DNA of 63,487 bases, the filler included, from Candidatus Woesearchaeota archaeon CG1_02_57_44 (GTDB lineage Archaea; Nanobdellota; Nanobdellia; Woesearchaeales; CG1-02-57-44), in the NCBI GenBank assembly GCA_001871415.1. It is 5 parts of 5 records of this genome, joined end to end, with 100 filler letters (N's around TTAATTAATTAA, not from the genome) between each part and the next. Parts side by side here need not be neighbours in the genome. Positions count along the whole stretch, not along the records: positions 39,634 to 46,447 come from MNWW01000005.1; 4 more parts are not named here. One strand, written 5' to 3'. A model generated the notes under the pieces. It made no database searches. It was not told the DNA's origin and worked only from the letters and a program-made list of their open reading frames with translations. Shown here piece by piece: positions 3,165-63,227 of the stretch (position 1 is its first letter; each line of letters begins with the position of its first letter). A program made the position numbers and the translations under genes.

Positions 3165-3347
3165 ATGACAAAAATCCGCCGCTCGGTAGGAGAAACGCTA
3201 CGCGTTTCTGGATGTTGGCCAGAAGCCAACACGCCAACCGCGGCCTGAAGGCCGCTGTATTGCCGCGCCTCGTCATTGCAGGCGGATTTTTGAATTGCAA
3301 AGCACGTCCTGAAGGACGGGGCATTCAACCCACGTGCTTTGCAATAA
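3165..3347 (-). repeat. Structured dispersed repeat, copy 1 (carries a 45-nt two-hairpin insertion at 3187-3231)
   Basis: Aligns with 39740-39876 and 46626-46762; lies 35 bp downstream of the stop of the radical SAM gene. Confidence 0.92.
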
Positions 3348-25792: not shown

Positions 25793-26058
25793 TGTCTTTT
25801 CCCCTTCTGCAAGACCGGCCAGCTGAGCGAAGCGAACGCTGGCCTTGCTTTGATCGACCTTTTCACAAAAGGTCGCCGGACAGGCCCATGTCATTTTTGC
25901 GCATGAACTCCTCGAGTTCATTGCGTCGCCTTCACACGGCGGAGGTCTCCGGTTCGAGTCCGGGCGGATCCATCTCTGTCGCACGGAAAGGCAATGCCTT
26001 TGCATCGCGTCGCCTTCACACAGCAGCGGTCTTTGGCTCCAGTGCTCACACGCCCATA
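25793..26058 (+). repeat. Tandem array of tRNA-Val 3' fragments separated by hairpins
   Basis: CCGGACAGGCCCATGTC is repeated at 25876-25892; a near-exact copy of tRNA positions 25-73 lies at 25924-25972 and a degenerate copy at 26008-26056. Confidence 0.85.
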
Positions 26059-29845: not shown

Positions 29846-29855
29846 GGCCGCAACC

Positions 29856-29905
29856 CTTATATATTACCATAAACATGGTAAACATTTACCAGTAAAGTGG
29901 TAAAT
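29856..29905 (+). promoter_or_regulatory. TATA box plus tandem palindromic operator TTACCA-N6-TGGTAA x2
   Basis: CTTATATA at 29856-29863; palindromes at 29864-29881 and 29886-29903, immediately before ATG 29906. Confidence 0.75.
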
Positions 29906-32353: not shown

Positions 32354-33148
32354 ATGGGTAAGGGGCAGGCATCCATTTTCATCATAGTGGGCGTTGTCAT
32401 CGTTCTCTTGGCCGGTGTCGCCATCTTCTACGCGAGGCAGTCGCCCCAGCAGCAGATCCTGGACCCGACAAGGCCTGACGCCATCCGCGCTGTCGTGGAC
32501 AGCTGCCATCGCGACCTGCTGACGCAGGGCATACAGTGGATAGGACTGCATGGAGGAAGAATACTGCCAGTGGCGCCCAAGCTCTTCGCTGACCGTAATA
32601 TCCTCTCAGACCTTGACCTGCCTTGGTCGACAGTGACAGCAGGCAGGGAGAATCTTTTTATCCACTATCTCTATGCGCAAGGCACACCGTCGTATGAACC
32701 CGGCAATGAGCAGATGGAAGCGGATCTTGGCGCGTATATAGTGTCTAACCTGCCCGCCTGCGTCAATGAGTTCCGTGATTTCAAGAATGCCGGACTGCAG
32801 GTGGAATGGGATGCACCCTCAGCCAGTGTTACTATCAGCGACACAACAGTCAAGAGCGACTTGACTTATGGCATCAGGGTGTTGCTGCCAGACAGCGTGC
32901 TGGAGTTCAATGACTTCACTGTGCAGTTGGATTCGCAGCTGGGTCGCATCTGGAATGTCATGGTGCCTGCGCTTCTCTCGCGCATTGATGAGAAGCCTGA
33001 CTTCATGCCATCGGGAAAACTGACCGACCTTGGCGAGGAGTATGCTGTCAATGCGGGCGGGTTCCCGTACCAGACCAGTTATGTGTACTACATAATAGAC
33101 AAAGGGGAGGTTGACCTTGATTTCCTGTTCGCCCAAGAACGCCCGTGA
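32354..33148 (+). CDS. Class III (type IV pilin-like) signal-peptide protein
   Basis: MGKG-QASIFIIVGVVIVLLAGVAIF; SC...IGLHGG motif; paralog of 57928-59991. Confidence 0.75.
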   Translation: MGKGQASIFIIVGVVIVLLAGVAIFYARQSPQQQILDPTRPDAIRAVVDSCHRDLLTQGIQWIGLHGGRILPVAPKLFADRNILSDLDLPWSTVTAGRENLFIHYLYAQGTPSYEPGNEQMEADLGAYIVSNLPACVNEFRDFKNAGLQVEWDAPSASVTISDTTVKSDLTYGIRVLLPDSVLEFNDFTVQLDSQLGRIWNVMVPALLSRIDEKPDFMPSGKLTDLGEEYAVNAGGFPYQTSYVYYIIDKGEVDLDFLFAQERP

Positions 33149-36100
33149 CGTGAGCATCGCCCTGGTGCTATTGCTGCTGGTAGCGGTGCTGCCCGTGGTA
33201 CTGGCAGGCGAGAGCGTCGCGTGGAGCGCATATCAGGAAGCTATCAAAACTGCTGCTGAGACAAGGGATGCTAGTATAGATGCCGCGCCGGCTGACGCTG
33301 AAACAGCGATTGCTGCTGTGACCAGCAGCACCTCAACCCCGACAGATGGATCATCCCCAGTGACCACTTGGCATTTTGATGGCAACTCATATAACTCACA
33401 AGGCCCCGCAGACGCTGCCAGAGCCACAGCCGTTGAAGCAAAAAAGAACGAGCTCATCGATGCCGCAAAAAAAGCATTTGATGATGCTAAGGCGACTGCC
33501 GCCACCGCATTCCAGACAGCGCTGGTCGCGGAGCTTGCCGCAGCTACAATAGGAAGCGACTATTCTACATTGTTCCAGTTGTTGCGCGGTGAAAAGATAG
33601 GTGATTTCGCTGATGGTGACCTCGCGTTTCCCACCACAGGATTCACGTTGCCTGAGACCCTGTCCTTCGGCAATGGCGAAACAGCAATGACCCTTGATGG
33701 CTGGCAGGGTTTGCGCAACATCGTCATCAACAGTGACGGAAAGCCGCAGCTCGTTTACGGCACCGATGGAGCTGAGACCACGACCACCATCGGCGCTGGC
33801 CTCGATAAGCTTAGCTTCGCTGAAGGAAAGCTCAAGCATGGTGACATCTCACTGAATGGGATGCAGGAGATAGCTTACATCCCCGGCACGACAACTGAAG
33901 AGAACGTCCAGCTACCGGGATCATACAGCGTCACCTACGGGGAGAACAGTCCCTCAGTCTTTCCCCGGCAGTCTATCGAAGTCAAGGATGGTATCCTCTA
34001 CGTGGACGGCAGACCCTTCGCAGGAAACGGATTCACCAATGTAGATGCAAGCGGCGATACACCAAAGGTCAGTTACAAGGTCGGAGAGGAGGAGCGAACA
34101 CTCACAATAGAAGGTCTTGCGGATAACGAAGGTGTGAGCATCAGGAAGGATGGCGATACGACCTGGCTGGATGTTGGCGGTGTGCACTTGGAGGCAGGGC
34201 TTGGCTCTACTGCAACAGATACCATGGAGGCCAGATTAAGGATTGAGCCCAAGGGCTCTGGCAAGACTCTAGTTGAGATTATGATGGTTCCACAAGACGA
34301 AGCAACCCCAGATGGAGCTATATTCGGGGAGACATCAAGTCAGGTATATAGAGTGCCCCCCATGATTGTGCCTGAAGGTAGCTCATTCTCGTTCAGTCAG
34401 GTATCTGACACCCGTGAGGGTGCAACAACGGATACGACAACGGCAGTCACTGTCCGATGGACTGATACCCGCCCGGGAGAGATACGGTTCATGCAGATGC
34501 TCCCAAAGGAGGAGAACAGCAACCTGCCATTAAATACTATGGGAGTTCGCGTTCCAGCAACATTCGAGATAGACCCATCGGATACCGCCTCACCATTCCA
34601 CTTCACCGGCACTATCGATATGCTTGGCAAGGAAGGGACCCCCTTCGCGGACAAGCCCGTGCGTGTTTCAGCGTCCATGATTCCGGAAGCGACGGAAGAG
34701 CAGACTGCCACCGGAGCCGTCGCCGTCGGCTTCACCGATACTGGCGCAATCCGTGTGGTGCCCCGCACGGAACTAACGCAAGAGCTTGCTGTCGGTAACT
34801 ATGCGTTCAGGCGCGAGACCATTGAACAGCTTAAATACGATGCGACAAGGACCCCATCATGGTATCGCGCCGAAATACCCATAAATCCGTTTGAGGCGAT
34901 TGCCGGTATCACAGCCAGCTTTGGCGTGGAGTCCGGCACGAAGGATAAATTGGGTATAAAGGACGATGAAAAAGATACATGGGATAGCATAAAAGTTGAT
35001 TTCACGCAGCCACTGAAAGGGAAGAGTGCCCAGGAAAGGAATCTCCAACAGCAGGGGCTTGCGGTCAGTATGTATGATATTGAAGGACGTGTGGTTACCC
35101 GCATCCCATTCCAGTATATCCCAGATGATGGAGGGAGTCTGACATTAGAGACAAGACCACTGCCAGAAGAATCATGGCCAAAGGATGTGGAAATCCGTCC
35201 AGAATCAGTGATCCGTGAGAGGATGCAGATAAAAGGGATAACCTATACGGAAGTATTCAACCGCAATGGCGATTTTGGCGGTGTTATGTACACAGGCGCG
35301 ACAGAATCAACAATAATACAATACAGGCCAAAGCTCGCCGAGAGCAGACTGGATGTTGCTGTCGGTTCTATGAATCTATTGCCGGACCAGTTGAATCCAT
35401 CTATCAGTGAGTTTGACATCAATGCGGTGATCACCAGACATAATGGCGTGGATCAGGAGATAGGCCTATGCATAGGCGATGCCTGCAAGAGAACGACGCT
35501 TCCGGCAGACACGCCTGCCATAATGATTGGCGGTGCGAGCACAACCTTGCCTGAAGTGAGTACAGAAGAAGGAACAGCAAACATCAACTTGATAGGCTTT
35601 GATAAGACCGCCGACAAAGGGAGCATATCGCTTGTGCTGGGACCTGTCGAGCACACCTTCACCCCCACAGGAGAGGGAACAGAACGAAAGGTCGAGCGTT
35701 ACAGTCGTTGGCTCCTCAGCATGGATAAATATTTCACGCAGGTGATTCCTGAGACAGAGGGAGAACAGCGTTATTTCAACAGGCTCGTGTTGGAGGGAAT
35801 CGATTGGACCACAAGTGAGCTCGAACCTGGCAATACTGTCAGGCTGTTAGAATGGAAGGATGCAGAAAGTTCTGATGGCACAACAACACCGACTATTGGA
35901 AGAGTGAGCATCCACACAAAACCCTCTGGTGGCGATAACGAGGGACGCCTCAGTGTCAAGGATTATGCAGGCGCGTCAATTACGGAAAAAAAGCTTACGC
36001 TCGCAGAAAAACCACCACCGGCCATCATAACGCTTGGTCAGAGCATGCGTGAATATGCGAAAACTCATAACGGTGTCATTCCCATCCCGACACAGTTGGC

Positions 36101-37199
36101 TAGGTTATGGGCATTAAGCGCCGATCAAAATATGCTCGACGACCCGGACAGGGCATGGCTCATCAACGAGTTGCGTTCGCGGGCAAAGACAGCGGGGACC
36201 GACAGCACTTCAGGCCGTGCAATAACAGGATTAAAGGCGGTTGATAACGGCTTTAAGCTGTTGTATGCTGATGGCTCAGTAAGCTCGTATGTCTTAGAGC
36301 CGGACTTTTTGGAAAAATATGCAGAGATGAGCGAACAGGACCTTAAGACCAATATTAAAACCATAACAACTGAAGTCACCACAGCAGGAAGTAAAGGGGG
36401 GCCTGCGGTTGCTGTATTACAGAACGCCTTGATGAACATGAATATGGCATCCGACGCGGTACATCCGAGCAAAGGTCAATTAAAAGAGGAACAACCATCT
36501 TTCATAGCAGAAAGAAGGAGGACTGACATTCGTAGCATACTTGCGACGCTTCCTGCCGACCTACAGGAGAAGATAAAAAAAGCAAAGACAGATGACGAGA
36601 TCAAGAATATCCTTCTGGATGAGATAAAAAAGAACTCCGACAACCAAGATACACTAAGAACAATATCAGAATTTGCGGAGAGTATAGGCATGGATCTCAC
36701 AGAGCAATCTGCGGGAGAAGCAGAACCACCACCAGCAGAACCAGCGGCAGACACGACAGATTCAACCCCACCATTGCCTGCAGTAAATTCAGAAGATGAA
36801 AAAACCACTGTACAGCATTTTGTAGATAAGTTTAAAGAAAGCTTGACCTATGACTATGAAGATAATGCCGATAAAAGACGCAATATCATTGAGGTTGAAC
36901 TAAAAAAGGCATATTCCAGTATTACAGCCGACCACCTCGCCAGACTGACCGACCAGATCTATAATGACCCGGGCCTGCGCAAGGAAAATGGGAATTACGC
37001 TGAAGAGTGGAAGAATGAGAATCACAGACCGGAGGCAGCAGCAGAACCAGCAACAGCAGAAGGAACAGAACCAACACCAGCAGAAGGAACAGAACCAGCA
37101 ACAGCAGAAGCAGAACCAGCAACAGCAGAAGCAGAACCAGCAACACCAGCAGAAGCAGAACCAGCAACACCAGCAGAACCAACAACACCAGCACCATAG
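33111..37199 (+). CDS. Very large secreted/surface protein with Pro/Thr/Ala/Glu repeat tail (start may be TTG 33117)
   Basis: N-terminal hydrophobic signal, beta-rich acidic core, helical C-region and a tail of AEPAT repeats; overlaps the upstream gene; GGAGG at 33106-33110. Confidence 0.8.
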   Translation: MTLISCSPKNARDVSIALVLLLLVAVLPVVLAGESVAWSAYQEAIKTAAETRDASIDAAPADAETAIAAVTSSTSTPTDGSSPVTTWHFDGNSYNSQGPADAARATAVEAKKNELIDAAKKAFDDAKATAATAFQTALVAELAAATIGSDYSTLFQLLRGEKIGDFADGDLAFPTTGFTLPETLSFGNGETAMTLDGWQGLRNIVINSDGKPQLVYGTDGAETTTTIGAGLDKLSFAEGKLKHGDISLNGMQEIAYIPGTTTEENVQLPGSYSVTYGENSPSVFPRQSIEVKDGILYVDGRPFAGNGFTNVDASGDTPKVSYKVGEEERTLTIEGLADNEGVSIRKDGDTTWLDVGGVHLEAGLGSTATDTMEARLRIEPKGSGKTLVEIMMVPQDEATPDGAIFGETSSQVYRVPPMIVPEGSSFSFSQVSDTREGATTDTTTAVTVRWTDTRPGEIRFMQMLPKEENSNLPLNTMGVRVPATFEIDPSDTASPFHFTGTIDMLGKEGTPFADKPVRVSASMIPEATEEQTATGAVAVGFTDTGAIRVVPRTELTQELAVGNYAFRRETIEQLKYDATRTPSWYRAEIPINPFEAIAGITASFGVESGTKDKLGIKDDEKDTWDSIKVDFTQPLKGKSAQERNLQQQGLAVSMYDIEGRVVTRIPFQYIPDDGGSLTLETRPLPEESWPKDVEIRPESVIRERMQIKGITYTEVFNRNGDFGGVMYTGATESTIIQYRPKLAESRLDVAVGSMNLLPDQLNPSISEFDINAVITRHNGVDQEIGLCIGDACKRTTLPADTPAIMIGGASTTLPEVSTEEGTANINLIGFDKTADKGSISLVLGPVEHTFTPTGEGTERKVERYSRWLLSMDKYFTQVIPETEGEQRYFNRLVLEGIDWTTSELEPGNTVRLLEWKDAESSDGTTTPTIGRVSIHTKPSGGDNEGRLSVKDYAGASITEKKLTLAEKPPPAIITLGQSMREYAKTHNGVIPIPTQLARLWALSADQNMLDDPDRAWLINELRSRAKTAGTDSTSGRAITGLKAVDNGFKLLYADGSVSSYVLEPDFLEKYAEMSEQDLKTNIKTITTEVTTAGSKGGPAVAVLQNALMNMNMASDAVHPSKGQLKEEQPSFIAERRRTDIRSILATLPADLQEKIKKAKTDDEIKNILLDEIKKNSDNQDTLRTISEFAESIGMDLTEQSAGEAEPPPAEPAADTTDSTPPLPAVNSEDEKTTVQHFVDKFKESLTYDYEDNADKRRNIIEVELKKAYSSITADHLARLTDQIYNDPGLRKENGNYAEEWKNENHRPEAAAEPATAEGTEPTPAEGTEPATAEAEPATAEAEPATPAEAEPATPAEPTTPAP
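37035..37196 (+). repeat. Coding minisatellite (GCAGAACCAGCAACA-based 21-24 nt units)
   Basis: Encodes AEPATAEGTEPTP... at the C-terminus of the large protein. Confidence 0.85.
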
Positions 37200-37397
37200 T
37201 ACCAGACCGCCTAATCCATACTATTAGCAAAAAACAACAATGCAGGGCACAGTATATCCAATTCTATTGGCACATGGTATTGCAACATAATAGACTACTT
37301 GTCCGGGATATGGCGCAGGATATTCTCCAAGATATCGTGACACCAGACAGATTCAATCATGCAGAAACAGCAAATCCATAATGGTTACGCACCACAG

Positions 37398-39633: not shown

Positions 39634-39650
39634 CGAGAGGTAAGGGCGCG

Positions 39651-39737
39651 ATGGTCCTGTCACCAGAGACGCAAGCGGAATTTCAGCGCCTTGTCGAAGG
39701 ACACCGTCGTCTGCTTGAGGCGATAGGGAAGCTGTAG
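39651..39737 (+). CDS. 28-aa microprotein, or 3' end of a gene cut by the gap
   Basis: MVLSPETQAEFQRLVEGHRRLLEAIGKL; GAGGT 9 nt upstream; the frame is also open back to the gap. Confidence 0.5.
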   Translation: MVLSPETQAEFQRLVEGHRRLLEAIGKL

Positions 39738-39739
39738 TG

Positions 39740-39876
39740 TTATTGCAAAGCACGGGGTTGAATACCCCGTCCTTCAGGACGTGCTTTGCAATTCAAAAAT
39801 CCGCCTGCAATGACGAGGCGCGGTAATACCGCGGCCTTCAGGCCGCGGTTAGCGCCGAGTGGCGGATTTTTGTTAT
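39740..39876 (+). repeat. Structured dispersed repeat, copy 2
   Basis: Reverse complement of 46626-46762 with one difference; starts 3 nt after a stop codon. Confidence 0.93.
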
Positions 39877-46625: not shown

Positions 46626-46762
46626 ATAACAAAAATCCACCACTCGGCGCTAACCGCGGCCTGAAGGCCGCGGTATTACCGCGCCTCGTCATTGCAGGCG
46701 GATTTTTGAATTGCAAAGCACGTCCTGAAGGACGGGGTATTCAACCCCGTGCTTTGCAATAA
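46626..46762 (-). repeat. Structured dispersed repeat, copy 3
   Basis: Matches copies 1 and 2; lies 57 bp downstream of the metK stop. Confidence 0.93.
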
Positions 46763-57927: not shown

Positions 57928-59991
57928 GTGGACGGTGGGTGGATTTTGGGCAAAAAGGGTCAGATAACAGCCATCCTGATAGTCGGCATAGTCATAGTGC
58001 TGGGCTCTTCTCTGGTATTGTTCTCCAAGAGCAAGGCGCAGCAGCCGCAGCTGCGTATTGAAGAGGCGCCCACAGCGTCGGATCCCATCTCTGGCCTGGT
58101 GCAAAGCTGCCTTGCCACGACCACGACCAAAGGCCTCAAGCTCATCGGCCTGCAGGGCGGCTACGCGTACCCGGATGAGCGGGGCATCGCTCCTGGGGCT
58201 CACCCGACTGAGGGTAACGCTATCTTATTTCCTGATGACACGGGCTGGCCTATTGCCTCCTGGTGGTATCTGTCCAGCCCTGATGACTGTGCGACAGATT
58301 GCCAGTTTTCCAGCGAGCGGCCGGGCATGGACGTTGTGGCTGAAGAGCTGGAGCGCTACATCGTGCGCGAGCTGCGTCAGTGCCTGAATGTCGCTGTCGT
58401 ACCTGAGTGGGACATCACCTATGGCGATCCCATCCCCGCGGCCCAGTTCGTCGGCGACGGCGTCAGTGTGCAGTTGTCCATGCCGGTCACCGCCCAGCGC
58501 TCTGGCGAGCGCCTTGAGCTGAGCAGGTTCTATGCCACGCTGCCCACCATGCTTCCTCGCATGTATGCCCTTGCGACGGAATTGACGAATTGGGAAGCCA
58601 ACAACAGCTTCCTTGAGCTGCACACGCAGAATCTCATCGGCACGTACTCTGGCGGCGCGCTGCCGCCTATCAGCGACGTGTCTTTTTCACTCGATCAAGG
58701 GCGCTACTGGATAGCGCAGAATGCCAGAGCCACCTTGCAGGACGCGCTGCAGTCATATGTTCCGGGCATACGGCTGGAGGACGCTGCCAACTTCAGGCCC
58801 GTGGTGACCGCCAACCCGGTCGCGCAGGGATTCTACGACCAGATGGTGTTCTCACGCTCCGGACTCTCGACGCCGCATCAGGACATTGCGTCACACTTCT
58901 CCTACCTTGGTTGGCAGCCCTACTTCTCGCTCAACAGCGGCCAGCAGGTCATCGGGCCGGAATCCAGCAACGTACTCATGGGCATCCTGTCACTGGCCAT
59001 CAAGCGCTACGCCGCTTCCTACGACCTGAGCTATCCGGTCGTGGTGCGGCTCAGCTCGGGTGGCGAGGAGCTGCTCTTTGCGCTTGAGGTCAATATCCGC
59101 CAGAACGAGCCATTGTCGCCCGGCGCGCTGATATTGCCCCAAGGGCAGCGCCAGAGCTCGACGATGTTCTCGCCGCAAGGGGCCAAGGCCAATGTGACGG
59201 TCGTGGCGGTCGATGACGTCGGGCAGCCTGTCAGCGCCACGGTCGGCTTCGCGTCGGGCAGGGAATTCGGCATCATCGGAGAAACAGCAAGGTATCCTGT
59301 GGTCCTCGCGTTCCCGGCCGGAGCCGCGGGCAGGGCCGTGTTCACGGCACAGCAGCATCTGACGGTCAGCGTTCCGCTCGCTATATCAGGCGTGCACGAC
59401 GAGAAGGTCCTGCAGGTAGTGATGCCAAAATTGCGCACACCATCCGTCAGGGTGGAGAAGGTCTGGCGGCAGAAGATCAACAGCGCATGGGTGTACAACG
59501 GGACACGACAGGCACTCGCTGATGATGAGAGCGTCAATATCATCCTCGAGCGCGTGGGCGCGCAAGGCGAAGAGCAGCTCATCACCCATGCTGCTGTGAC
59601 TGGTCAAGGCAGCGCGTTCCTCTCGCAGGGCATCGCTCCGGGACACTACCGCATGCGGCTCACGCTCACCAAGACATCCGAGTTGTATATTCCGCCGACG
59701 CGCATCTGCCCCCCTGACCTGATAGGCGGGCTTCTCGCGGGTTGCACAACCGTGCCCAATGTCACCATACAGAATGAGTCTGTCATCGGAGGGACGGTGT
59801 TTGATGAACGGCCGGTCACGCTGCACGCGTCGAGCCTTGACGAGCACTCGACCATCGTGCTGACCGTGCTGGAGACGGGCATCTTCGCGCTCAACGAGAG
59901 CTTCCGGCGCATCGACGACCTCAAGGAGCTCTCGCCGTCAGAAGAGCTGAGCATCGCCTACCGCACTGCCTTGCTGCCGAGGTTTGAATGA
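57928..59991 (+). CDS. Large class III signal-peptide (pilin-like) protein
   Basis: KKG-QITAILIVGIVIVLGSSLVLF; SC...IGLQGG; C-terminal beta-sandwich-like region. Confidence 0.78.
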   Translation: MDGGWILGKKGQITAILIVGIVIVLGSSLVLFSKSKAQQPQLRIEEAPTASDPISGLVQSCLATTTTKGLKLIGLQGGYAYPDERGIAPGAHPTEGNAILFPDDTGWPIASWWYLSSPDDCATDCQFSSERPGMDVVAEELERYIVRELRQCLNVAVVPEWDITYGDPIPAAQFVGDGVSVQLSMPVTAQRSGERLELSRFYATLPTMLPRMYALATELTNWEANNSFLELHTQNLIGTYSGGALPPISDVSFSLDQGRYWIAQNARATLQDALQSYVPGIRLEDAANFRPVVTANPVAQGFYDQMVFSRSGLSTPHQDIASHFSYLGWQPYFSLNSGQQVIGPESSNVLMGILSLAIKRYAASYDLSYPVVVRLSSGGEELLFALEVNIRQNEPLSPGALILPQGQRQSSTMFSPQGAKANVTVVAVDDVGQPVSATVGFASGREFGIIGETARYPVVLAFPAGAAGRAVFTAQQHLTVSVPLAISGVHDEKVLQVVMPKLRTPSVRVEKVWRQKINSAWVYNGTRQALADDESVNIILERVGAQGEEQLITHAAVTGQGSAFLSQGIAPGHYRMRLTLTKTSELYIPPTRICPPDLIGGLLAGCTTVPNVTIQNESVIGGTVFDERPVTLHASSLDEHSTIVLTVLETGIFALNESFRRIDDLKELSPSEELSIAYRTALLPRFE

Positions 59992-62900
59992 GACGCGGCC
60001 TGAAGCATCAGGGGTCGCGTGTCAGGCCTGTCCTAGCCGTTTCTTTCCTGTTCCTGCTGGTCGGCGCTCTGCTGGCCATCCCCGCGGTCAAGGCGCCTGA
60101 CGGCACGCAGGATGGCGGAACAGGCGACGACGCATCCGACGCCTCCGGTGCTACTGATGCCACGGGCACGACTGATCCTTTTGCGTCCTTTGATCCTATC
60201 ATCCGGGATTTCTCCTTCGCCGGTGTCGATGGCGTCGATGGTCTCGCGTCATTATCGCCTGACGAGCAGCTGACCTTCACCGTGGTCATCTTCGGCGCAG
60301 GGGCTGAGGTTGATGCTGGTCATGTGTATCTTGGCGCTGACGGCGGGACGCCCTTTCAGGCGTGCGAGCAGACGCAGCCGCTTGAGCAGCTGTGGACCTG
60401 CACGTACAGCGCCGCCACATCGCTGTACTCGCCGGGGATGCTGACCAAGAGCGTGTGGGTCGACCATCGCAGCATGAGCGCGACAGGATTTCTCGACGGG
60501 CAAGGACCGGGCATCACGTCGGTGCGGCTGTCTCCTGCAGGATTGACGCTCAGTTACCTGGATGGCATCGGCGCTCTGAACGTGAATGGGTGCGCTGGCC
60601 TCGGTGAAGTGGCGCTGTATACGGACCTGACCGAGGAGCCGCTGCGCGTCTGGGAGCAGAGCGACCCGCGATGCGCCAACAGCGTCACGCTGCCCGTCAA
60701 TATGTCCGCGCTCGTCCCTGCGGGAGAAGAAGGCACGCTGCAGCTGCTGGTCGTGGCGAAGGACCGCGTGGGCAACGCGGGGGCATCCCGTGCTGTGTCG
60801 TATGACTATGACACGCTCGCGCCGGGCATCACGTACGATACTGCCGTGTATGATGGTCATCCGTTCACGTTCCTCAAGGCAGGCAGTCGCATCACGGTCA
60901 GGGTCAATGTGACTGAGGCGTCAACGGTCCGCGCTGATTTCACCGGCATTGGCGCGAATCCCGCGAACATGGAGGCGTCCTGCATAGCTGTGGCTGCGGG
61001 TTATCGCTGCGTCTGGCAGACGGTTGTCGCGGACACGCCCGGCAGCTTTTCTGTCACGGCCACGGACGCTGCCGGCAATGCCGCTTCGCAGGATTTCTCG
61101 CTCAGCTGGAGCGTCGATGATTCCGGCCCGCGCTCGCCGCAGCTGTCCGGAGGCGTTGATGTGGATGGCACGGCGTATGTCAAGGCCGTGAACAACACGT
61201 TCACGCTTACGCTGGTCGACGAAGGCAGCGGGGTAGCCAACGCATGGCTGAACCTGCAGCAGCTGGACCCTATCGCCTATGGCGCGGCTGTGCCTGCGGA
61301 TGCCTGCGAGGCCGCGCAGGGCGCGTGGCGATGCGTCTGGAACAATGTGCATGTCTCCATCGCGTCGGGCAGCAGCGCGACAGTTGCGGTATCACGGGCA
61401 GCTGACGCGCTGGGAAATCTCCTGAGCGAGCACGCCGACCTGACCGTCGTGGTCAAGACATCCAAGCCGCGCATCACTGACATCAGCATCAACTGCACCC
61501 GGCCCGGCGGCGAAGCCCGCGGCATCTGCGCGGAAGGCGACCTGATGACTGTGCAGGCCAATGTGTCTGATCCGCTGCCCGTGACCGTGCTTTTCAATCT
61601 CTCTCATATCTATTCCGGCCGGGCGGCTGATGAGGTGGTCTGCGAGGAAGGGCGCTGCGTGCTGTCCCTCGCAGAGGCCATACCCGCGTTCCTCACCAGC
61701 AGCAAGGTGCTGCCTGTGGTGGTGAGCGCCAGCGATCCCGTGGGCAACACGCAGGTGGCGCAGCGCGACATCGAGATACTGGATTCACCCGGGCTCACGC
61801 CGGACTTCTGGACGCTGTCCGAGGTGACGAGGCAGCCGTCGGCCATTGACAGGGCATCAGCGAGCATCATTGCCCAGCAGGTCTACTTCGGCGTGGAGCT
61901 GCTGGCGCACGCGCCCGTGACGCTCGCGAGCGTGCACTTTGACGGGTGCGTGGGAGCAAATGACCATGAACTGCCCACGGACGCGGTGCAGTTCCTGAGC
62001 GCGGAGCCATCGGTCATCGGGCTTGAGGACTCGCCACGGCAATGGATCGTATTCCCGCTGGAGACCACGGACTTTAGCGTCAATGAGCTGCGCTTCAACT
62101 GCACGTTCAGCACCACGTCGATAACCGGCGGGCGGCTCTATGAGACAGAGGCGGACATGGTGGAGCTGACCATCCCGTTCTTCAACATGCCCGCGGGGAC
62201 AGTCGATGATGCCTTGCAAAAGAAGATAGACGACGAGAAGAACGGTTTCCTGCATAATGGATTGTTCCGCACGCTCCAGAAGGTCGTGGACATCGCGGGC
62301 AAGATCTGCCAAGGCCTTCGCGCGTGGCAGATGTTCGTGTCGATAAACGATCTTCTCCACGGGAAGCTGGCAGCGGTCTCGGGATTCAATGTGGTGGAGG
62401 GCTGGCGACAGCTTCAAGCGCAGGCCATGGAAGGCGCGGGCCAGACAGGATACAAGATGTACGCGTGGCTGGACAAGTACTGCAAGTACCTCAACTGTCA
62501 GGCCGCGCCGGGCACGCTCGACTACGATCCCACCATGGCCTACCAGGTCATGGGACAGGCAGACTTCGTACTGGAGCTGTTTGAGAACATAGACCCCGGG
62601 CTGGTGCGACCTGACGGCACGGGCAGGGCCATCGTCAATACGCAGGCCATACCGCCTGATTTGCAACGAAGCTTTGGCATACCATCCACTGATGCTTCTG
62701 ACGCGTACGTCCTGAGCAGCGAGCAGACCGCTGACCTGCAGTCAAGGAACCGGATACAGCAGATAGCCATCAAGGACTCGCTGGTATTGTCCCTTGCAAC
62801 GCGGTGCATCCCCGGCGTGCTGTATAACATTGACAAGTACCGACAGGTTTCCTGCCAGTACATTGACTGCCTTGAGAACGGGGTGTCAACGTACAATGTG

Positions 62901-63227
62901 CCTGAATCAGTCTGCGAGTCCCAAAAGGGCTATGCCACGTGCAAGTACGTGTTTGGCGAGATCTTCAACATCATCCCGTTCACGGCAGTGATGGACTACT
63001 ACGCCGGGCGCATGAAAGAGATCATGAGCAATCCCTTATCTCTGGTCGGGGCTATCACCGGCTATGGCTGTCGCGCGGAACTGGCGACAGGCGCGACGGC
63101 GAGCATCTGCTTCAAGCTGCAATACGCTTCCCTATACCTGCAGGTCTTTCAGGAGGTCATGAACATCTTTGACTCCCATACGTGGGAGATACAACGCGAC
63201 TACTGCGACAGGGTGGGGCTGGGATGA
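59988..63227 (+). CDS. Large secreted protein with Ig-like domains and Cys-rich helical C-terminus
   Basis: Signal peptide, repeated D..GN motifs and C..W.C.W pairs; ATGA-coupled to both neighbours. Confidence 0.8.
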   Translation: MRRGLKHQGSRVRPVLAVSFLFLLVGALLAIPAVKAPDGTQDGGTGDDASDASGATDATGTTDPFASFDPIIRDFSFAGVDGVDGLASLSPDEQLTFTVVIFGAGAEVDAGHVYLGADGGTPFQACEQTQPLEQLWTCTYSAATSLYSPGMLTKSVWVDHRSMSATGFLDGQGPGITSVRLSPAGLTLSYLDGIGALNVNGCAGLGEVALYTDLTEEPLRVWEQSDPRCANSVTLPVNMSALVPAGEEGTLQLLVVAKDRVGNAGASRAVSYDYDTLAPGITYDTAVYDGHPFTFLKAGSRITVRVNVTEASTVRADFTGIGANPANMEASCIAVAAGYRCVWQTVVADTPGSFSVTATDAAGNAASQDFSLSWSVDDSGPRSPQLSGGVDVDGTAYVKAVNNTFTLTLVDEGSGVANAWLNLQQLDPIAYGAAVPADACEAAQGAWRCVWNNVHVSIASGSSATVAVSRAADALGNLLSEHADLTVVVKTSKPRITDISINCTRPGGEARGICAEGDLMTVQANVSDPLPVTVLFNLSHIYSGRAADEVVCEEGRCVLSLAEAIPAFLTSSKVLPVVVSASDPVGNTQVAQRDIEILDSPGLTPDFWTLSEVTRQPSAIDRASASIIAQQVYFGVELLAHAPVTLASVHFDGCVGANDHELPTDAVQFLSAEPSVIGLEDSPRQWIVFPLETTDFSVNELRFNCTFSTTSITGGRLYETEADMVELTIPFFNMPAGTVDDALQKKIDDEKNGFLHNGLFRTLQKVVDIAGKICQGLRAWQMFVSINDLLHGKLAAVSGFNVVEGWRQLQAQAMEGAGQTGYKMYAWLDKYCKYLNCQAAPGTLDYDPTMAYQVMGQADFVLELFENIDPGLVRPDGTGRAIVNTQAIPPDLQRSFGIPSTDASDAYVLSSEQTADLQSRNRIQQIAIKDSLVLSLATRCIPGVLYNIDKYRQVSCQYIDCLENGVSTYNVPESVCESQKGYATCKYVFGEIFNIIPFTAVMDYYAGRMKEIMSNPLSLVGAITGYGCRAELATGATASICFKLQYASLYLQVFQEVMNIFDSHTWEIQRDYCDRVGLG

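Follow-up and report, generated by a model that had tools for sequence, protein, structure and literature searches.

A family of gene-less, two-domain repeats in an order of small archaea, very probably non-autonomous IS200/IS605-type elements

Results and Discussion

Identity of the repeat

A structured repeat at positions 39740-39876 of the window, i.e. the whole 63,487-nt stretch of DNA that was analysed and that is made up of several contigs of the assembly GCA_001871415.1 (hereafter G000), is very probably a non-autonomous element of the IS200/IS605 family (PATE) moving by peel-and-paste transposition. The compared sequences show that insertion always takes place 3' of a set tetranucleotide and that each end has a hairpin with a guide at its 5' foot; they also show a joint change of guide and cut site across genomes, a single tetramer at the empty site and ends held in common with tnpA-carrying IS200s. 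Among the options offered by the original prediction, a non-autonomous mobile element acting as single-stranded DNA was the one supported, on the basis of the IS200 ends, the guide covariation and the split genes.

Since PATEs are known and guide-target covariation has been published, the basic identity of the element is ordinary. What is new here is the order-wide persistence, the equality of the left and right cut sites and the long closing stem of each end, one of which pairs with the target's final two bases (32/32). As far as sequence comparison can tell, the element represents a previously undescribed family that keeps a fold of two hairpin domains across an order of small archaea, and no description of this family was found among the openly accessible papers searched. 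The repeat had originally been assigned to no named family; this holds for Rfam, which returned no match, and fails for insertion sequences, as guide and right hairpin share 24 identical nt with the right end of a tnpA-only IS200, a kind of match that the original prediction had itself named as removing the novelty.

Copies in the window and in the assembly

The three predicted copies were all found in place, at 3165-3347 (-), 39740-39876 (+) and 46626-46762 (-), and their positions were verified; stop codons occur 34, 2 and 56 nt ahead of them. The proposed 137-bp unit had to be trimmed, as its first four bases, TTAT at 39740-39743 (+), are host DNA outside the element and constitute the target tetranucleotide and left cleavage site, C_L. 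The element proper in copy 2 spans 133 nt (39744-39876, +) and belongs to the main type, subfamily A. Copy 3 (-), with its target TTAT at 46759-46762, differs from copy 2 by a single C-to-T change, giving a G-T pair in the top strand. Copy 1 (-) is an older variant of 183 nt, 46 nt longer than copy 2, mainly because of a two-hairpin insertion of about 45 nt in domain 2 (near 3185-3230, -). It shows a left guide AATG, a left TTAT at 3344-3347 and a right TCAT at 3165-3168, and its pairing of flanks is also present in the metagenome contig L068.

The count of three copies proved far too low for the genome. A BLASTN search with the repeat unit returned 47 matches in the G000 assembly (1.53 Mb, 77 pieces, 82% complete), 38 of which are located within 300 nt of a contig end, whereas the same search against 40 relatives gave no match. 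Once identical flanks had been merged, and the reverse-strand rows and two others with insufficient flanking sequence dropped, 27 left and 29 right distinct junctions were counted for subfamily A, with 5 left and 3 right for a TGAT/CATA subfamily, named B. The genome carries about 27-29 main-type copies plus the TGAT/CATA subfamily. Copies consisting of domain 2 only were observed at C26:42102-42188, C64:10273-10360 and C71:8939-9025, with perfectly inverted flanks up to the contig end; they were treated as probable fold-back chimeras at the stem, with enzyme-made hairpin ends as a possible alternative.

Fold and parts of the element

Both domains fold as originally described, with energies of -77.6 kcal/mol (z -9.1) as RNA and -47 (z -8.0) as DNA, and none of 200 shuffled controls folded as well in either form. 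Domain 1, the left end (39742-39792, +), is backed by folds and covariation; its 12-bp closing stem takes in the target's final two bases and surrounds a guide hairpin and the left-end hairpin. The left guide G_L, AATA at 39761-39764 (+), is replaced by CATA in the TGAT subfamily and by AAAG in TTAC-type relatives, and its position matches that of the left guide in the IS200 of metagenome contig L058. The imperfect left-end hairpin with a TTCA loop (39765-39783, +), a putative TnpA binding site, aligns with the left end of the same IS200 and shows compensatory changes, while the 3' foot of the domain, AT at 39791-39792 (+), covaries with the last two target bases. Domain 2, the right end (39794-39872, +), comprises a 12-bp closing stem, a middle stem and the right-end hairpin (39829-39848, +), with the right guide G_R, AATA, at 39825-39828 (+); guide and hairpin together are the 24 nt identical to the right end of the tnpA-only IS200 L022. 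The right cleavage site C_R, TTAT at 39873-39876 (+), belongs to the element.

The two hairpins lie in direct orientation. No terminal inverted repeat was found at six offsets, where 4-6 of the 20 terminal bases were complementary, and with 133 nt (112-162 nt in folded relatives) the element is too short for a transposase. Substitutions between copies had been read as G-U wobbles of the sense strand; the change in copy 3 is indeed a G-T pair in the top strand, but single-stranded DNA fits it equally well and the observation is not RNA-specific. These wobbles would mark the top strand as the active one and are compatible with single-stranded DNA and RNA alike. The minimum-energy fold engages guide base 4 and target bases 3-4 in other pairs, and the active fold must therefore differ from the predicted one. 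Circular folds put the junction within the domain 1 stem in 27 of 28 members, leaving the first two site bases unpaired.

Distribution in the order

The order containing G000 comprises very many families with small genomes. A covariance model was built from seven G000 copies and used with a threshold of E 0.001, at most 21 candidates being scored per genome. Matches, many of them full-length and multi-copy, were obtained in 41 of the 150 further genomes of this order that were searched, and outside it in 7 of 132 genomes of the other orders of the class, 5 of these in one family. The unpublished genomes G315 and G131 enter search tallies, and nothing else that is claimed here depends on them. 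An exact hairpin pattern matched 1 of 400, the family being visible by the covariance model alone, and the model returned no match in either genome with the bare right hairpin.

The resulting alignment contained 38 members, 4 from G000 and 34 from 30 other genomes, the latter being 59-80% identical to the window copy. Two-sided changes were recorded in 40 of 48 pairs and 93.8% of the cells pair, compared with 32-48% in slid controls; these figures lean high because the alignment was fitted to the covariance model. An earlier pair count on alignment A1 had been weak, with the left stem of subfamily B mis-registered. The presence across many families at this level of identity, with the structure kept, suggests long persistence.

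Junctions, guides and target choice

The left tetramer of subfamily A is TTAT at 24 of 27 junctions, TCAT at two and CTAT at one, and its right end is TTAT in 27/29 and TCAT in 2/29 cases. Subfamily B shows TGAT at 4/5 left and 3/3 right junctions. The four bases ahead of each inner hairpin are AATA in subfamily A and CATA in B, and this change from AATA/TTAT to CATA/TGAT is the exact prediction of the IS608 pairing rule. In IS608, guide base 4 pairs with site base 4. According to the accessible text of PMC5934647 and PMC3201880, guide bases 1 and 2 pair crosswise with site bases 2 and 1, guide AAAG reading TTAC and GAAT reading TCAA, and the available part of PMC3479197 gives three of the four guide bases as interacting. 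The base following the right end of the element is T in 25/32 and C in 7/32 cases, the genome-wide values after TTAT being 21% T and 36% C.

All copies of consensus type have a right TTAT, and it is among them that the left tetramers TCAT and CTAT were found; a right TCAT together with a left TTAT is shared by two related copies from different loci (copy 1 of the window and the C30 copy, with L066). Since left and right tetramers differ in these particular copies, no target duplication takes place. The left/right differences assign the right tetramer to the element; the demonstration is an indirect one, because C_L equals C_R.

Across genomes, 34 of 37 intact right ends pair strictly with the end tetramer at guide positions 1, 2 and 4, the remaining 3 showing a G-T pair at position 4, and the left ends follow; in this set, three registers were set by hand and one cut end was dropped. 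The guide/end pairs were AAWA/TTAT (24), AAAG or AACG/TTAC (5), CAWA/TGAT (4) and TATA/TAAT (1). Exceptions to the guide rule were copy 1 and the C30 copy (AATA with TCAT), L183, the left end of L129 and, for the IS elements, the left ends of L114 and L115. At its 3' foot, domain 1 has AT with all 25 left tetramers that end in AT and GT with all 7 that end in AC; 6 members were unclassed and subfamily B is without this foot-target pairing. Both guide and foot counts refer to sequences, not to independent events.

Relationship with IS200 elements and the candidate helper

When 185,579 species genomes were scanned for the right-hairpin pattern, 15 loci were returned, 9 in the single-cell genome 'Euryarchaeota archaeon SCGC AAA252-I15', 4 in an Altiarchaeota MAG and 2 chance matches in bacterial genes. 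In SCGC AAA252-I15 the hairpin terminates a tnpA-only IS200 whose guides are AATA and whose two ends both carry TTAT, and the Y1_Tnp IS200s L022 and L028 have a right hairpin and guide identical to those of the element. The loci of the Altiarchaeota MAG (L023, L027, L030 and L034) are gene-less units that share the right hairpin and the TTAT ends and have a long closing stem on the left domain only. Viral contigs showed no match to the hairpin pattern or to the TnpA of L058.

The metagenome pattern scan yielded 27 loci, 26 with G000 flanks and one (L063) with a flank absent from the assembly. The left flank of contig L058 is 100% identical to G000 C29, which holds an empty TTAT; on L058 this shared flank is followed by an element copy, and an intact IS200 starts directly after the right TTAT of the copy. 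The tnpA gene encodes 137 aa (Y1_Tnp E 1.2e-28, HIH and YxxxQ motifs). The ends of the IS200 are AATA/TTAT on the left and GATA/TCAT on the right, the left end having the same two adjacent hairpins and the same GGGT-loop-guide-CCCC-hairpin layout as the element. Contigs of 4/4 runs, 2 of which may be the source of G000, covered the IS, and the empty C29 allele was present in one run; the tauE-like gene downstream of the IS had an intact empty allele with TTAT at the IS junction in 2/4 runs. The PATE-IS and IS-tauE joins depend on contig L058; run records spanning them reach fewer than 31 letters to one side.

Neither Y1_Tnp nor TnpB was found in the G000 assembly (82% complete). Decayed left (83%) and right (94%) ends of the L058 IS200, without tnpA, were observed at C44:68364-68760 and C32:205-238. 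Among the order's 29 tnpA loci (an unpublished one was omitted), 24 right ends were parsed with a pattern that required a leading G and consisted of GATA or GAAA/TCAT (19), GAAG/TCAC (4) and GAAG/TCAT (1). The 14 parsed left ends were AATT/TTAA (6), AATA/TTAT (2), AAAC/TTAG (2), off register (2) and exceptions (2). No tnpA or tnpB flanked by two-domain ends occurred in sets of 32, 20 and 9 loci, so that no direct parent emerged. Y1 genes were detected in 21/41 element-positive and 35/109 element-negative genomes (Fisher p 0.04, kin not being independent), a weak association, and G020 (99% complete, 10 element matches) contains no Y1 gene. Judging from these sequences, the likeliest helper in this species would be the intact 137-aa IS200 TnpA of L058.

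A different Y1 transposase-like ORF of about 200 aa was noticed at L162, L166-L169 and L174-L177. It is very alike between distant families, is preceded by a conserved upstream region and shows no apparent IS200-type right end, possibly reflecting a recent transfer or a domestication. As a RAYT-like partner of the element it was discarded, the element occurring in 3 of the 9 genomes read.

Gene context and evidence of mobility

The repeat had been described as always following a stop codon in the sense of the upstream gene, which the wider survey contradicted. With genes from a dicodon gene caller (1386 genes, 84% coding), the 32 left junctions of G000 had the upstream gene in sense in 18 cases and in antisense in 10, while 1 was inside a gene and 3 had no gene call; a longest-ORF method applied to 44 loci of other genomes placed the nearest upstream ORF in sense 19 times and in antisense 24 times, with no such ORF at 1 locus. 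The sense excess in G000 (18/28, p 0.011) is only mild, because 41% of intergenic TTAT(T/C) sites are already in sense, and may derive from T-rich gene ends or co-directional genes.

The 106-nt upstream flank of copy 2 (39634-39739, +) starts 10 contigs identically and was probably attached by the assembler. In L050 it comes with 1.3 kb further upstream and is joined to the C52 flank, in L054 the same flank is joined to that of C66, and the downstream flanks of C37, C17 and C74 have other upstream flanks in metagenome assemblies. The upstream context of copy 2 thus looks like a probable assembler artefact, and the stop codon just before the copy is probably misplaced, since other assemblies pair the flanks differently. 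Left and right flanks were also paired differently between L048, L054, L064, L065 and L067 and G000 C57, C61, C22, C11 and C74; such discordances are likely mis-joins, a real rearrangement between copies being possible. A 66-bp direct repeat of a gene 3' end (L050:834-899 and G000 C52:271-336) was seen to bracket a Fic/Doc-like gene together with a small ORF and a copy of the element, resembling a small island integrated at a gene end.

Evidence for insertion came from interrupted genes. In G128 an antisense copy splits a Bro-N gene. Of 119 homologues, 116 could be aligned to both halves, and every one of these shows a spacing of two residues at the split, which is possible only with a single TTAT, indicating one TTAT at the empty site. 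In-silico excision at 37 loci was uninformative in most cases. Removal of the element with one tetramer restored a frame extending 60 aa or more to either side in L129, L135 (here also under other cut models) and L182, and one with a short side of 53-57 aa in L127 and L158, the comparison with homologues covering L127. Putative gene-splitting copies were also noted at L129 (G080, a restriction-modification gene), L158 (G248) and L182 (G498). Three candidates were rejected: L141 as a split gene, as there are really two genes; L069 as a clean empty-site pair, its entire intergenic stretch being unlike G000 C19; and a joint in run X2 going back 145 nt as a circle junction, as the intervening letters are unknown and a contig across two copies looks alike.

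Other repeats and genes

Two further repeats were noticed. The former, outside the window, is a classical 163-bp MITE with 11-bp terminal inverted repeats and 9-bp target duplications that are exact in 4 of 7 full copies and near-exact in 1. The full copies in G000 are at C29:30243-30405, C40:71-233, C40:49459-49621, C49:5734-5897, C49:17879-18041, C53:3580-3742 and C74:948-1111, with partial copies on C25 and C76 and an occurrence on L063. The latter, of about 72 bp, was found in the window at 25813-25859 and in G000 at C22:20610-20681, C32:4-61, C32:110-181 and C44:50285-50342; several copies are next to a tRNA gene or to a duplicated 3' end of a tRNA (window 25744, 25924 and 26008), and on C32 the repeat is located just ahead of the IS200 right-end remnant.

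The window also contains a 1362-aa ORF (33111-37199, +) with no Pfam match and a low-complexity tandem repeat at its end (37011-37214), and two ORFs (57928-59991 and 59988-63227) with no Pfam match. Many paralogous genes are present in G000 at C26:4272-9942, C54:6324-6923 and C57:23745-23970, with N-termini that we take to resemble archaellin. Finally, a 32-nt AT-rich inverted pair, 78% alike, lies ahead of genes on two contigs (2943-2974 and 29849-29880 of the window), possibly as a shared promoter motif.

Proposed mechanism

By analogy with IS608, a Y1 HUH TnpA supplied in trans would bind both hairpins on the single-stranded top strand, with guide bases 1, 2 and 4 pairing with TTAT bases 2, 1 and 4. 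The top strand would be cut after each TTAT, releasing a 133-nt single-stranded DNA circle that would insert after another TTAT with T or C next. A trait specific to this family would be that both ends use the same guide, so that C_L equals C_R. Other steps would likewise be specific to it. The long closing stems would make each end a rod with the cut site at its base, and the two adjacent rods would bring both cut sites together there. The left stem would pair with the target's final two bases and, in the circle, would seal the end-to-end junction into a duplex; we hypothesize that the closing stems pre-organise or protect the single-stranded intermediate. For cleavage they would have to open locally at the base, since pairing otherwise occupies guide base 4 and site bases 3-4.

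A broader reading, which we put forward tentatively and hold to be less probable than its opposite, is that these repeats are a long-lived, self-standing lineage of gene-less single-stranded DNA replicators in DPANN archaea rather than a short-lived deletion product of a local IS. Such a lineage would have its own architecture, would spread between families borrowing whatever IS200 TnpA is present, and would have been retargeted several times (the series TTAT, TTAC, TGAT and TAAT) by a joint change of both guides and its own end, and of a stem base for TTAT and TTAC; its circle would be a sealed dumbbell and its left stem a second contact with the target.

Alternative explanations

The same persistence could suggest REP/REPIN-like sequences, i.e. 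repeats that are vertically kept, copied by a domesticated, non-jumping Y1 enzyme and retained for a benefit to the host. The occurrence in many families of the order at the identity reported above, with conserved structure, would agree with this, as would the lack of a close IS200 tnpA in several high-copy genomes and the conserved Y1 of about 200 aa without obvious IS ends, which in G080 lies some 370 nt from a copy. However, the repeats carry no GTAG tetramer and no GTAG/GTGG foot, their guides being AAWA, AAAG and CAWA, and they form neither inverted doublets nor a cluster at a transposase gene, with at most one copy near Y1 in 20 loci; the 200-aa Y1 type was read in 9 genomes, 6 of which are without the element. 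Near-identical bursts within a genome, a patchy distribution (41/150), the disruption of genes and ends matching those of mobile IS200s also speak against this explanation, which we regard as improbable.

A structured 3'-UTR RNA, terminator or mRNA stabiliser, as envisaged in the original prediction, is very unlikely to be the reason for the repeat, despite a very stable RNA fold that is slightly better on the top strand, top-strand changes that are G-U and not A-C, and the mild sense excess in G000. The upstream ORF is antisense for 10/28 copies here and 24/43 elsewhere, copies occur inside genes, splitting some of them in antisense, and the Rfam search for a described RNA family had no match. 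Moreover, the top strand of copy 2 yielded no call of a terminator-like site, the T-run forms a stem's 3' arm, and the unpaired conserved bases are the guides, whose covariation with the ends has no RNA explanation; a secondary effect on transcripts reading through a copy is possible. A TnpB omega-RNA remnant, i.e. an IS605 right end kept as an RNA scaffold, would be hairpin-rich and of similar size, and the element does include an IS right end. The chance of this is minimal, as G000 contains no TnpB, TnpB was above the cut-off in 8 of 150 genomes, model R1 gave no match better than E 0.05 in 9 tnpB loci, and the HEARO and sot families of Rfam were not matched. An equally slight chance is left for a classical DDE-transposase MITE with a 4-bp TTAT target duplication. 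It would account for the same tetramer on both sides and for a single one at the empty site, but the terminal inverted repeat is missing, consensus copies combine a left TCAT or CTAT with a right TTAT, the two related copies at different loci share a right TCAT and a left TTAT, and the tetramer tracks internal guide bases. The true 163-bp MITE of this genome, by comparison, has clear inverted repeats and 9-bp duplications.

Significance and comparison with known systems

As a non-autonomous IS200/IS605-type element, the repeat offers a natural retargeting series in one small scaffold, a 133-nt substrate on which HUH Y1 transposition might be tested or programmed. Its conserved fold hides guide and cut site and pairs with the target, a feature outside the IS608 model as set out in the accessible parts of PMC3201880, PMC5934647, PMC5027513 and PMC3479197. 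The data also suggest that, even with no dedicated transposase, a non-autonomous element can persist across an archaeal order whose genomes are reduced. On a practical level, the element breaks assemblies (38/47 matches at contig ends), creates false gene neighbourhoods and is liable to pass for a covarying non-coding RNA in motif screens.

The closest known counterparts are the PATEs of Haloquadratum walsbyi (Dyall-Smith et al. 2011, PMC3119063), which in the accessible text are described as short, without transposase or terminal inverted repeats, with near-terminal palindromes similar at both ends, related to IS605-type elements, free of target duplication and present in homogeneous bursts; the features by which PATEs are recognised there were found in our element. 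Those PATEs, however, concern one species and are partly core-deleted transposons, whereas the element described here spans many families and no parent IS with its ends was found. Its long covarying closing stem at each end is a further difference, although the PATE-end tables S8 and S9 of the same paper could show something similar. The PATE-like elements of ISGst1-5 in Geobacillus stearothermophilus (Meers et al. 2023, PMC10055086) are, in the portion of the paper available, likewise gene-less and moved in trans, with covarying guide and end motifs and a right boundary able to move on to the next motif that matches, a feature shared with our element. In that case left and right motifs differ and the ends are common with tnpB/iscB elements, whereas in our element C_L and C_R are equal and a link to TnpB was not found.

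REP/REPIN sequences and their RAYTs (PMC8266576, bioRxiv 279083 and bioRxiv 2021.07.10.451892, accessible parts) share with the element the non-autonomous palindromic repeats, the processing by a Y1 HUH enzyme, a location mostly between genes and a possibly long life. They differ from it by the GTAG tag, the inverted doublet and the linked RAYT, in place of which the element has a tetranucleotide target and IS-type ends. IS200/IS605 is reported as the most widespread archaeal IS family in the available text of PMC13343696, where non-autonomous elements are set aside; further literature for comparison, likewise seen in part, is PMC4810608 and PMC7290912. The tnpA-only archaeal IS200s differ from the element in encoding TnpA and in being without closing stems. 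In those of SCGC AAA252-I15 (L022/L028) the right hairpin is identical, the guides are AATA and each end has TTAT, and L058 and its relatives (L096-L125) share the left-end motif and the target, while the right ends of the order's IS200s (GAWA/TCAT or GAAG/TCAC) are unlike those of the element.

Finally, IS608 of Helicobacter pylori has in common with the element a guide tetramer located 5' of the hairpin foot, pairing in crosswise fashion, insertion on the 3' side of a tetramer and an influence of the post-cut base, and its left-end pair AAAG/TTAC occurs within the element family (PMC3201880, PMC5934647, PMC5027513 and PMC3479197, as far as their accessible text goes); its coupling to the lagging strand is described in PMC5027513, in the part available. 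According to the same partial sources, IS608 is instead autonomous, its left cut site differs from the right one and no stem buries the cut site. An extra pairing between element and target was engineered into IS608 in the accessible portion of PMC5934647, whereas in the family described here a natural two-base complement covaries with the target.
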